Positions 5,864 to 9,227 of a DNA stretch of 29,425 nt are shown in pieces. The notes under the pieces are model-generated. The model was not told where the DNA came from. It ran no database searches and was given only the letters and a program-made list of their open reading frames with translations. The stretch is from positions 1 to 29,425 of the IMG/VR virus record IMGVR_UViG_3300049173_000069, one strand, 5' to 3'. The DNA is from a virus (lineage: Duplodnaviria > Caudoviricetes). Made by a program: the position numbers and the translations under genes. Position 1 is the stretch's first letter. Each line of letters opens with the position of its first letter.

Positions 5864-6973
5864 ATGCCAGTCAGCCCTGACATGGCCGAGGACCTCGCCG
5901 CCGCTGTCTCGTCACTGTACGAACAGGCCGAACTGGCGCTCATCGAGAAGGTCACCCGCGCCCTCGCCGAAGGCCTCGACAGCCCCCTGTGGGTCGAGCT
6001 CAAGCTCCAAGCGATCGGCCACCTGCGTACGGCGATCGAAGACATCATCGACGCCCTCCAAGTCGACGCGGCCGGCGCGATCCGTCAGGCTGTCGCCGAG
6101 GCGTACGACCGCGGCGCACAAGCCGCCGTCGCCGAGCTCGGCGCGCTCGCCGTGACCGCGCCCGCAATCCCCGCAGGAACGCACGCCGTGGACCGGCTGG
6201 CCGCAGCACTCGTGCAGGAGACCAGCGCAACCCACGCACGGATCCTCCGCTCTGGCCTCGACGTGTACCGGCAGGTCATCGCCCAGGCCACATCCGCCCC
6301 CCTGCTGGGGGCATCAACACGTCGCGAGGCGGCGGCGCGGGCGCTGGCCCGGTTCGCGGACCGAGGAGTTACCGGGTTCGTGGACCGAGCTGGCAAAGCC
6401 TGGAACCTCACCTCATACACGGAGATGGCGACCCGCTCCGCCCTCGGCCGCGCAGCCGTACAGGCGCACACAGACCGGCTCGGCGCCGCAGGCATCGACC
6501 TGGTGGTCGTGTCCAACGCCCCGGAGGAGTGCCCCCGCTGCAAGCCCTGGGAAGGCGAGATCCTTCGGCGCGACGGCGCATCCGGTGAGGGCACCGTCGA
6601 GGTCGAGCACGCCACCGAGGACGACCGCATGGTCAGCGTCCGTGTGGCCGGCAGCCTGCCAGAGGCCAGAGCCGCAGGGTTGATGCATCCGAACTGCCGT
6701 CACTCGGTGTCGATCTACTTGCCCGGCCTGACCCGGCCGCCGGCCCCGAAGACCGACCGGACGCGGGCGACGTACGAGCAGTCGCAGCAGCAGCGCTACC
6801 TCGAACGTCAGGTGCGGTTGTGGAAGCGGCGGGCGGCCGGGTCCGTGGACGATGCCGCGCGCACGAAGGCGAACGCGAAGGTGCGTGCGTATCAGGGGCG
6901 GATTCGTGAGCTGGTCGCGGCGACGGGCCTGCCGCGCAAGTCGCATCGTGAGCAGCTCACGTCGCCTCGCTGA
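5864..6973 (+). CDS. Phage minor capsid protein (Phage_min_cap2 / gp7-like)
   Basis: Follows portal; GFVDRAGKAWNL, ECPRCKPWEG, GLMHPNCRH, QRYLERQVRLWKR motifs. Confidence 0.9.
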   Translation: MPVSPDMAEDLAAAVSSLYEQAELALIEKVTRALAEGLDSPLWVELKLQAIGHLRTAIEDIIDALQVDAAGAIRQAVAEAYDRGAQAAVAELGALAVTAPAIPAGTHAVDRLAAALVQETSATHARILRSGLDVYRQVIAQATSAPLLGASTRREAAARALARFADRGVTGFVDRAGKAWNLTSYTEMATRSALGRAAVQAHTDRLGAAGIDLVVVSNAPEECPRCKPWEGEILRRDGASGEGTVEVEHATEDDRMVSVRVAGSLPEARAAGLMHPNCRHSVSIYLPGLTRPPAPKTDRTRATYEQSQQQRYLERQVRLWKRRAAGSVDDAARTKANAKVRAYQGRIRELVAATGLPRKSHREQLTSPR

Positions 6974-7165
6974 CTACTCCTCGGGCTCGCGCCTGTTCTC
7001 GCGGTCCCATGCGTCGAGGTCTTGCCGAGAGCACGACGGACAGTACGGATCGCTCTGCTTGCGTATCTCCTCACCTCCCCACACGGGTGTGACGGAGACG
7101 TTGCGGACCAACGGTCCCTTACAGCGGCGGCAGGCGCCTGAAGCGTTCTCTCGATGCGTAGCCAT
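6974..7165 (-). CDS. Counter-oriented 63-aa Zn-ribbon protein (CRRC...CPSC), leaderless
   Basis: MATHRENASGACRRCKGPL...YCPSCS...; ATG at 7165 lies 6 nt downstream of a TACCTT -10 box; stop abuts the minor capsid stop. Confidence 0.65.
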   Translation of the reverse strand: MATHRENASGACRRCKGPLVRNVSVTPVWGGEEIRKQSDPYCPSCSRQDLDAWDRENRREPEE

Positions 7166-7171
7166 CCCACG

Positions 7172-7193
7172 AAGGTAACCCCAGGGGCTGACA
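7172..7193 (-). promoter_or_regulatory. PafBC/RecA-NDp-type promoter TGTCAG-N10-TACCTT
   Basis: Minus strand reads TGTCAG CCCCTGGGGT TACCTT CGTGGG ATG, matching the actinobacterial TGTCRG-N10-TANNNT motif. Confidence 0.6.
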
Positions 7194-7212
7194 GCGCTGG
7201 GGTCCGCAGACT

Positions 7213-7371
7213 TCGGCCCGCCTGGTGCGGGCCGAGAACACCGATCCGCCTGGCGCGGGTCACCCCTGAAGGCCCGCCAGGCGCGGGCCGCTTGCACAAC
7301 CATCGCGGCCGCCAGGCGCGGCCCGAACCCCAGATGCCCGCCAGGCGCGGGCGACTCATGCCCTGGAGGGC
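7213..7371 (+). repeat. Array of five hairpins with core CCGCCWGGYGCGG, plus a degenerate sixth over the scaffold RBS
   Basis: Cores at 7218, 7246, 7274, 7309, 7338; stems 6-9 bp with variable but paired outer bases; GCCCTGGAGGGC at 7360-7371. Confidence 0.85.
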
Positions 7372-7374
7372 GCA

Positions 7375-8145
7375 ATGCGGAAGAAGACCCTGCCCCGACT
7401 CGCAGGCTCCGGCTGGGCGCACCCGTACGGCCACGGCCCTTTCTCCCCGTTCCTGTACGCAGACGGAGGGGACGGCGCCGGCTCCGGATCCGGCAGCGGC
7501 GACGAGGGCGGTGACAGCGGCGGATCCGGCGACGAAGGCGACTCCGACGACGGCGACGGCGGCCAGGGCGCGGGCGGTGATTCCGGCAAGGGCGGCAAGG
7601 ACAACGACCTCTCGGCCACGGTCAAGCGGCTGGAGAAGGAACTCGCCGACGCCCGCAAAGATGCCGGGAAGGCCCGTACGGCGGCGAAGCAGCAGGCTGC
7701 CGACGACGCGGTCAAGGCGCTCACGCAGCAGCTCGGGAAGGCGCTCGGCTTCGTCAAGGACGACGCCCCGCCAGACCCGGCGAAGCTCGCCGAGGCCATC
7801 GCGCAGAAGGACACCACCATCTCCGAGAGGGAGTCGGTGATCCGCGCGAAGGACGTCGAGCTGGCTGTGTGGTCCCGCGCCGACAAGCTGTCGGCGAAAG
7901 CCGGCGCGCTGCTCGACTCCCGCTCCTTCGTCAACGCAATCTCCACCCTCGACCCCTCCGACAAGGGCTTCCAGTCCGCCCTCGACCAGGCGATCAAGGA
8001 CGCGGTCAAGGACAACCCTGCGTTCGCGGCCACCGCATCCGCTGGCAAGAGCGGCGGCGATCTGTCCGGCGGGACCGGCGAGGGCGCCGCGAAGAAGCGC
8101 AACGGATCGCTCGCGGGAGCGATCGCGAACCACTACCAGACCTGA
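7375..8145 (+). CDS. Capsid scaffolding protein
   Basis: Directly before the major capsid gene; Gly/Asp-rich N-terminal region, coiled coil, LLDSRSF, AIKDAVKDNPAF, Gly-rich C-terminus; GGAGG RBS. Confidence 0.85.
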   Translation: MRKKTLPRLAGSGWAHPYGHGPFSPFLYADGGDGAGSGSGSGDEGGDSGGSGDEGDSDDGDGGQGAGGDSGKGGKDNDLSATVKRLEKELADARKDAGKARTAAKQQAADDAVKALTQQLGKALGFVKDDAPPDPAKLAEAIAQKDTTISERESVIRAKDVELAVWSRADKLSAKAGALLDSRSFVNAISTLDPSDKGFQSALDQAIKDAVKDNPAFAATASAGKSGGDLSGGTGEGAAKKRNGSLAGAIANHYQT

Positions 8146-8162: not shown

Positions 8163-9227
8163 ATGCCCGTGACGCTCGCTCAGGCGCAGCTCAACACCCA
8201 GGCGGATATCGACTTCTCCGTCATCGACAACCTCCGCCGCAACAGCTGGCTGCTGAACAACTTCGTCTGGGACGACACCGTCACCCCGGGCACGGGCGGC
8301 GGCTCCCTCACCTACGGCTACACCCGTCTCCTCGCCCCGAGCCAGGCGGCGTTCCGCCGGTTCAACGAGGAGTACGTCCCGAACCAGGCCACCCGCGAGC
8401 GGAAGAGCGTCGAGCTCCACCCGCTGGGCGGCGCGTTCACCGTCGACCGGAAGCTCGCGAGGCTCGGCCCGGCCGCCTCGAACGAGATCAGCTTCCAGCT
8501 CGCGCAGAAGCTCACCAGCGTGCGGACCCGCTTCCAGCAGGAACTCATCCTCGGCGACACCGCCGTCGACGACGCAGGATTCGACGGCCTCGACAAGGCT
8601 CTGGTCGGCCAGTCCACCGAGTACCTGCCCCTCAACGAGGGCATCACCTCCGGCTACCTCGACTGGTCCCCGGCGACGGTCACCACCGAGGACATCGCCA
8701 TGGCCGCGTTCGACGCCTTCGACGACTTCCTGTCCCGAATCATGGGCTCCCAGACCGGATCCGGCGACACCGGCGCCGACGGGTCGGTCCCGGCCGGAGT
8801 GAAGGCGATCCTCGGCAACACCAAGAGCATCGCCCGCATCCAGTCCCTCGCGCGGCGGGCCAACCAGTACACGTCCGAGAAGGACGCGTTCGGCAACCAG
8901 ATCATGCGGTACGGGAACTGGGTCCTCGTCGACCTCGGTGACCGTGTGGACGGCTCCGCCCCGATCATCCCCATCCGCTCGGCGGACGTCGACGGCGCCG
9001 GTGCCGGCGGCGTCATCACCGGCCTGACCGACATCTACGCGGTGTCGCTGGGCCTGGACGCCTTCCACGGCGCGGCGATGGCCGGCACCCCGCTGGTCGA
9101 GACGTACTTGCCGGACTTCACCCAGCCCGGCGCCGTCAAGTCCGGCGAGGTCGAGATGGGCCCGGTCGCGGCCGTCCTCCGCAACACCAAGGCCTGCGGC
9201 GTCCTCCGCAACGTGAAGGTTCGGTGA
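8163..9227 (+). CDS. Major capsid protein
   Basis: 354 aa after scaffold; YGYTRL..AFRRFNEEY, LGGAFTVDR, GFDGLDKAL, GEVEMGP; very strong codon bias. Confidence 0.9.
   Translation: MPVTLAQAQLNTQADIDFSVIDNLRRNSWLLNNFVWDDTVTPGTGGGSLTYGYTRLLAPSQAAFRRFNEEYVPNQATRERKSVELHPLGGAFTVDRKLARLGPAASNEISFQLAQKLTSVRTRFQQELILGDTAVDDAGFDGLDKALVGQSTEYLPLNEGITSGYLDWSPATVTTEDIAMAAFDAFDDFLSRIMGSQTGSGDTGADGSVPAGVKAILGNTKSIARIQSLARRANQYTSEKDAFGNQIMRYGNWVLVDLGDRVDGSAPIIPIRSADVDGAGAGGVITGLTDIYAVSLGLDAFHGAAMAGTPLVETYLPDFTQPGAVKSGEVEMGPVAAVLRNTKACGVLRNVKVR

Follow-up and report, generated by a model that had tools for sequence, protein, structure and literature searches.

The DNA analysed here, referred to as the window, is a stretch of 29,425 nucleotides from a virus of the Caudoviricetes, and includes a head module in the order terminase, SPP1-like portal, PF06152 minor capsid, a 63-aa ORF on the minus strand, a 256-aa gene and the major capsid. 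The minor capsid gene (5864..6973, plus strand; PF06152, E 8.8e-64) is followed by the 63-aa ORF with two CxxC motifs (6974..7165, minus strand; Zn-ribbon-like), the 256-aa gene (7375..8145, plus strand) and the major capsid gene (8163..9227, plus strand; phrog_212, E 3e-67). The 256-aa gene, located between the minor and major capsid genes, was assigned as the head scaffold gene by tblastn to annotated scaffolding proteins; its product matches the protein of this annotation in Streptomyces phages including Darolandstone and Vondra (21 records), and the named homologues are of Streptomyces origin. The Pfam family PF06810 (Phage_scaffold) was detected at E<=0.05 in 12 of 41 aligned scaffold relatives (best 4e-6), and gave no match to the window protein. 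A basic, Ala-rich segment of the scaffold, designated helix A (7651..7710, plus strand; residues 93-112), is a candidate RNA-reading element, as described below. Seven of its residues (A97, R101, A104, K105, A108, A109 and A112) are invariant in 41 rows. The segment lies inside a predicted helix of residues 76-124, with pLDDT of 79-85 for the block and 69 for the whole model, and a Foldseek comparison with the PDB gave no match at E<=0.001.

The N-terminal peptide of the scaffold (7375-7467 in the window) is a swappable module among the relatives, occurring in two or more conserved forms, W.HPY...YADG and GYRR.G.PIYAIAGG, each followed by a variable Gly/acidic linker, or being absent. This peptide may act as a signal for processing or docking. 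Between the stop codon of the minor capsid gene and the array described below lies a gap (6974-7193 in the window, minus strand; also in L020, L027, L070, L214 and others) that is a hot spot for the insertion of small antisense genes of the leaderless kind. The pattern TAnnnT-spacer-start was hit 27 times in 165 upstream regions, some of these hits probably arising by chance. Within the gap of the window, a leftward motif, TGTCAG-N10-TACCTT-N6-ATG, is present upstream of the array, and its closeness to the PafBC consensus given as tGTCgg(N10)tA(N3)T (PMC8635444) suggests a putative DNA-damage-inducible promoter. In the Raleigh-like phages (L001-L003, L024, L030), a small conserved CPY...W..GY gene precedes the array and is itself preceded by a long head-morphogenesis gene. 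Homologues of the 63-aa Zn-ribbon-like ORF were found in four of the 165 upstream regions, and this ORF reads as an inserted passenger outside the leader/scaffold system.

Upstream of the scaffold gene, CCGCCWGGYGCGG is present in five exact copies on the plus strand, at 7218, 7246, 7274, 7309 and 7338. These are the sole exact matches in the window, and the copies with their periods of 28, 28, 35 and 29 and their differing outer stems are as an earlier note on this DNA had described them. With two or fewer mismatches, 19 matches to CCGCCWGGYGCGG were found in the window, the level expected by chance (mean 20.1). The five copies correspond to hairpin 1 (7212..7236; 10 pairs, loop CUGGU), hairpin 2 (7243..7261; seven pairs including one U-G, loop CUGGC), hairpin 3 (7271..7289; seven pairs, loop CAGGC), hairpin 4 (7303..7326; six pairs plus an outer extension, loop CAGGC) and hairpin 5 (7335..7353; seven pairs, loop CAGGC), all on the plus strand, the last ending 22 nt upstream of the start codon. 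Next to them is the SD hairpin (7360..7371, plus strand; -6.9 kcal/mol), in which GGAGG at 7365-7369 lies 5 nt upstream of the ATG at 7375. The earlier note had recognized this sixth unit as the carrier of the scaffold SD, correctly, but had drawn it with a 5-nt loop, whereas its best fold is four pairs with the 4-nt loop UGGA. Likewise, the loop proposed as CWGGY holds for the five copies of the window but must be widened to C-N-G-G-N for the family, and the spacers, called unrelated, are mutually unrelated but show partial conservation among relatives (58% per column on average).

When hairpins were defined less strictly (CNGGN loop closed by a C-G pair, at least six pairs), five were found in the 29.4-kb window, every one of them within the array and on the plus strand; in 200 shuffles of the window this definition gave a mean of 2.0 hairpins per window and never more than two within 130 nt. 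The folding energy of the array region was no better than that of shuffled sequences (z -1.12). For the naked leader of the window, the predicted equilibrium favours inter-repeat pairing (-89.6 kcal/mol) over the six-hairpin fold (-78.9 kcal/mol) by 10.7 kcal/mol. In this prediction only hairpin 1 is well populated, with a closing-pair probability of 0.96, and the values for hairpins 2-5 are 0.02, 0.04, 0.53 and 0.10. The local hairpins would thus depend on co-transcriptional folding or a bound protein.

The conservation of the array was examined in 99 distinct leaders, collected as loci found via the scaffold or the DNA motif after removal of duplicates and incomplete leaders. Among hairpins with 5-nt loops, the CNGGN share was 278/605 on the sense strand, 44/757 on the antisense strand and 138/1158 in coding sequence, in a set of leaders that includes some loci found by the CNGGN motif itself. 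The loop letters C1, G3 and G4 are constant and the stems are variable; the spacing of units is irregular, mostly 20-40 nt. In an alignment of 16 five-hairpin leaders, 93.4% of cells were paired (100% for hairpin 2) and both-side changes were detected in 9 of 43 pairs (3 of 10 for hairpin 1), levels reached by 0 of 500 shuffles and compared with 40-49% for slid controls, the counts being inflated by relatedness according to the warning of the tool. The same alignment contained G-U in 55 cells and A-C in 6 (13 versus 5 columns), an excess that favours function of a single strand, the plus strand; when 138 distinct units were pooled, the interior ratio of G-U to A-C was only 24:14 (P=0.07). These data altogether bear out the earlier proposals of compensatory change, of arrays kept in position before the scaffold gene of relatives, and, with the strand bias of the loops, of function as plus-strand RNA. 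The array is a real conserved leader, and most likely it acts as RNA.

Leaders with CNGGN arrays are hereafter called type A; this label, type B and the corresponding helix A and helix B were coined in this analysis. Among type-A leaders having an SD call, the SD was located within the last hairpin in 89 of 90, and this hairpin had the canonical 5-nt loop in 68 of 90. The earlier idea of a cis element, multivalent and covering the ribosome-binding site of the scaffold gene, is supported. In the clade of the window, the SD hairpin is without the canonical loop in 21 of 29 leaders with at least three upstream hairpins; upstream copies were multiplied to five or six and the SD unit degenerated, a trend confounded with descent. 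As a consequence of this loss, repression in the clade would need hairpin 5 or a refolded SD unit. A switch by pairing of the penultimate loop with the SD loop was rejected, complementarity being present in 32 of 90 leaders against 30.5 expected.

The array was then compared with known families. No significant match to Rfam was obtained for the array region or for 14 related loci, a comparison that the earlier note had proposed, and the covariance models of GP20-a and GP20-b gave no match at E<=10 in the window and none at E<=1 in the 14 related loci. From the Csr-type families there was one rsmX hit, on the opposite strand of one relative (E 0.59, 26.6 of 56 bits). The CsrB/RsmZ RNAs and CsrA operators consist of several short hairpins with a repeated purine-rich GGA loop, one of them overlapping the SD. 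The present array is similar in these respects, with short hairpins in series, a recurrent purine-rich loop and one hairpin over the SD, but its invariant element is C-N-G-G and not GGA, which is present in none of the five upstream loops of the window and in 22 of 138 distinct upstream units. It is also a leader rather than a free RNA with its own terminator, the window region having no plus-strand terminator-like site, that is, no hairpin followed by a U tract; an intrinsic terminator in the window was rejected on the same finding. CsrA (PF02599) was not found in any of five Streptomyces genomes that contain related prophages, the search being positive in 3 of 14 controls. The earlier analogy with a CsrB/RsmZ-type sponge is therefore not supported.

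REP and BIME elements are present in many copies scattered over the host chromosome. Single units of the array were matched one to four times per genome in the five Streptomyces genomes, compared with zero to five times for a reversed control, so that a scattered host repeat, named in the earlier note as a possible refutation, is not what the array represents. The two-unit type-A pattern was found in 18 of 301 genomes, as was its reversed control; 12 of the 18 are scaffold leaders, and the remaining six, among them several tandem repeats, are not followed by a scaffold gene. The scaffold leader accounted for 14 of 18 motif matches in five complete phage records, and phylum-wide profile searches yielded few loci, in 3 and 6 of the 301 genomes. 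CRISPR arrays carry identical repeats, unique spacers of about 30 nt and cas genes nearby. Here the spacers are only 6-17 nt in length and 58% conserved between relatives, the stems differ between copies, and no Cas protein was detected among 12 head-region proteins scanned; processing into repeat-spacer units, as suggested earlier, is thus not supported. The array is a member of none of the GP20-a/b, Csr, REP and CRISPR families, GP20-a/b being excluded by model score.

A second widespread leader class, type B (L330-L409, L287, L293), is built from CC-GCAC/GCAU/GAAA-GG hairpins in arrays, with the SD usually at the final one, and the corresponding helix-B segment of the scaffold has the motif W..EARKWE.RAK.N. 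Further leaders with repeated loops are associated with different mid-regions of the scaffold, the loops being GCGAU (L053), GAGA (L322, L323), UAGAC (L318, L327) and CAAGG-like (L004, pMLP1). An Rfam scan of 14 type-B and other leader loci, 10 of them type B, gave no match. The type-B leader and helix-B scaffold of L358 are preceded by a single type-A hairpin that has a U tract; this hairpin is probably a remnant of recombination, retained as a terminator. The phages A118 and LL-H share a short scaffold leader (L244:4505-4590 and L245:6410-6495) with CGAC...GTCG followed by an A-run, and scaffold loci of this type matched no Rfam family.

The first sign of a relation between leader and scaffold came from ten scaffold relatives with the type-B leader. 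Nine of them have no BLAST similarity to residues 77-148 of the window scaffold and the tenth has a 35-residue match of 40%, yet the capsids of the same ten are up to 91% and the N-terminal peptides up to 90% identical to those of the window. The set was enlarged by protein searches with both mid-regions to a total of 170 distinct leaders, after removal of duplicates and three loci without a start call. Scaffolds were classified with a short profile for each helix at a 15-bit cut-off of our choice, and leaders by hairpin counts, the type-B pattern being defined after inspection of the data. Among 88 helix-A scaffolds, 84 were preceded by type-A arrays and four by neither type; among 70 helix-B scaffolds, 69 were preceded by type-B arrays and one by neither. 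Mismatch of helix and leader was thus found in 0 of 153 classified leaders, the rows of this table being related to each other. The four exceptions with helix A are L316 and L324, in which no array was seen, and L318 and L327, which carry a helix-A variant and the UAGAC loops. The remaining 12 of 170 scaffolds were unclassified, seven of these having type-A arrays and falling below the helix-A cut-off. Searches that started from DNA, outside the 170-leader table though with contigs partly shared, gave the same association: all 14 type-B motif hits, including two from very different phages, were upstream of helix-B scaffolds, and the two-hairpin type-A pattern preceded helix-A scaffolds (helix read by eye) in the 12 of 18 genomes noted above.

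Other parts of the head module do not follow the leader type. The N-terminal peptides, encoded between leader and helix, are present in both classes (WAHPY in 59 type A and 9 type B; GYRR in 10 type A and 16 type B). Among 12 capsid families, type A is found with six and type B with seven, two families holding both, and mapping of the B label onto a quickly built tree of 62 capsid rows required 12 changes, at least seven of them forced by well-supported branches; the major capsid gene thus does not track leader type. Minor capsid homologues are located upstream of both leader types (58 of 82 for type A, 30 of 67 for type B), and the four Zn-ribbon genes are divided equally, two to each type. 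Among the binders put forward in the earlier note, co-segregation accordingly favours the scaffold and disfavours the capsid and the Zn-ribbon protein, which are shuffled across both leader types. In a direct comparison of L034 (type A, helix A) with L377 (type B, helix B), DNA identity was 95% between leader and helix and 50-60% on either side. Such common sequence should permit crossovers that mismatch leader and helix, and the absence of these suggests selection for the matched pair, although the leader-helix distance of about 280 nt means that linkage contributes to the co-segregation. Since L322 and L323, with GAGA loops, share only the post-helix segment, the candidate was narrowed to about residues 93-112. 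The new finding of this analysis is that leader type tracks this one basic segment of the scaffold. Co-segregation as such is compatible with repression or with another use of binding.

The position of the array, its strand, its covariation, the SD in the last hairpin and the co-segregation of loop and segment are the observations that speak for an operator. It is fairly probable that the scaffold binds its own mRNA leader via the CNGGN loops and represses its own translation. We infer that the leader would act as RNA and be bound directly: scaffold that has not yet joined a prohead would contact the CNGGN loops with the basic segment at about residues 93-112, several hairpins would be loaded at once in a cooperative manner, and the bound scaffold would deny ribosomes access to the SD hairpin. 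Scaffold synthesis would then drop when scaffold exceeds capsid, and capsid assembly would titrate the scaffold and lift the block.

The same co-segregation is also explained if the leader serves assembly rather than repression, gathering scaffold molecules on the scaffold-capsid mRNA and nucleating proheads at the site of synthesis. This role could account for the growth to five or six copies with a degenerate SD unit in the clade of the window, and for P22 an interaction of portal and mRNA has been suggested, in the wording of one source 'with little experimental evidence' (PMC5529062). The placement of the SD in the last hairpin, in 89 of 90 leaders and with the canonical loop in 68, is however expected for translation control and unneeded for nucleation, and this role retains a small but real probability. 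It is unlikely that the hairpins act independently of the scaffold, as sites of termination, pausing, host-factor binding or blockage of RNase that determine the level of scaffold-capsid mRNA, with the match to the helix due to linkage. A hairpin with a U-rich tract is indeed present in 23 of 91 related type-A leaders, the same stem is found as terminator-like hairpins in unrelated phages, and in L358 such a hairpin, of type A, stands ahead of a type-B leader; but the window region is without such a plus-strand site, the loop letters C1, G3 and G4 are kept as the stems vary, and the segment common to both classes offers homology for crossover, yet no mismatch was found among the 153. Recognition of the loops by another protein, namely the major capsid, the minor capsid, the Zn-ribbon protein or a host CsrA-like factor, is quite improbable: these are neighbours or known binders of multi-hairpin RNAs, and GGA is present in 37 of 37 distinct SD units in addition to the 22 of 138 upstream units, but capsids up to 91% identical to that of the window occur with type-B leaders, minor capsid homologues precede both types, the Zn-ribbon gene is rare and evenly split, and CsrA was found in none of the five Streptomyces genomes. 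Double-stranded DNA palindromes bound by a dimeric protein (scaffold or regulator) for control of transcription would fit the inverted repeat with conserved inner GC core in every unit and the leftward promoter-like site just upstream, but are highly improbable given arms that vary with pairing kept, G-U exceeding A-C on one strand, copies all in the same orientation, irregular spacing and a last unit that tracks the SD.

Beyond repression by the scaffold of the window, there is about an even chance that actinobacterial phages in general carry orthogonal, swappable helix/loop pairs, in which a basic helix of 20 residues would read a phage-specific loop and both halves would be inherited together. 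The pairs would be helix A with CNGGN and helix B with GCAC/GAAA, with the GCGAU, GAGA and UAGAC types as further members. If this is true, scaffold autoregulation would be a widespread coded system, with RNA and protein halves co-inherited despite mosaic exchange. The array supplies a natural genetic map of the likely reader, the 20-residue segment, and the second orthogonal pair is a built-in control of specificity; the matching of scaffold to capsid in tailed phages thereby becomes testable with peptides, short RNAs and a reporter. A possible yield is a set of small orthogonal peptide-RNA switches for Streptomyces.

Among known systems, the MS2 coat operator and the boxB of lambda and P22, the latter read by the arginine-rich helix of N, are cases in which a phage protein recognizes a small hairpin loop. 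The system proposed here would be alike in the use of a phage protein on a small loop, in the basic Ala-rich candidate helix and in orthogonal helix/loop pairs between phages, but no sequence relation is apparent, the array is multivalent, and the reader would be an assembly chaperone.

With respect to position, the closest relatives are RNAs described by Fremin et al. 2023 (PMC10690425), namely GP20-a (RF02991), GP20-b (RF03003) and six more candidates lying immediately upstream of the genes for GP20, proposed there as cis-regulatory, with GP20 called a gene of unknown function and no binder named in that account. GP20-a and GP20-b are similar to the array as structured RNAs, proposed as cis-regulatory, directly upstream of a scaffold gene, which for the array is tied to PF06810 by the weak hits in 12 of 41 relatives, but are different in that their models do not match here and the hosts named for them are not Streptomyces. 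The same paper lists three Streptomyces-phage candidates, DNAVirus_1060, 1362 and 1369, which may overlap with the CNGGN motif. The titles and abstract openings of the papers found in literature searches contain no description of a CNGGN scaffold-leader motif. The novelty proposed in the earlier note thus holds as far as Rfam is concerned, but the class is less new, since both autoregulation of the P22 scaffold and RNA motifs ahead of GP20 scaffold genes have been published.

Translational autoregulation of the P22 scaffolding protein was the subject of 1985 reports (Casjens & Adams; Wyckoff & Casjens), and its determinant in gp8 is given as the N-terminus (10.1101/2022.12.13.520362). Two differences from P22 are apparent: a fixed-loop hairpin array is present here in a dedicated leader, whereas in P22 the portal gene and the start of gene 8 are 14 nt apart, and the segment is central here but N-terminal in P22. 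The comparison is one of role and position. In both cases, a scaffold gene has a putative cis site at its start, represented here by the SD inside the last hairpin of 89 of 90 type-A leaders, and the scaffold is the likely regulator, so that the array would resemble P22 scaffold autoregulation in its working.
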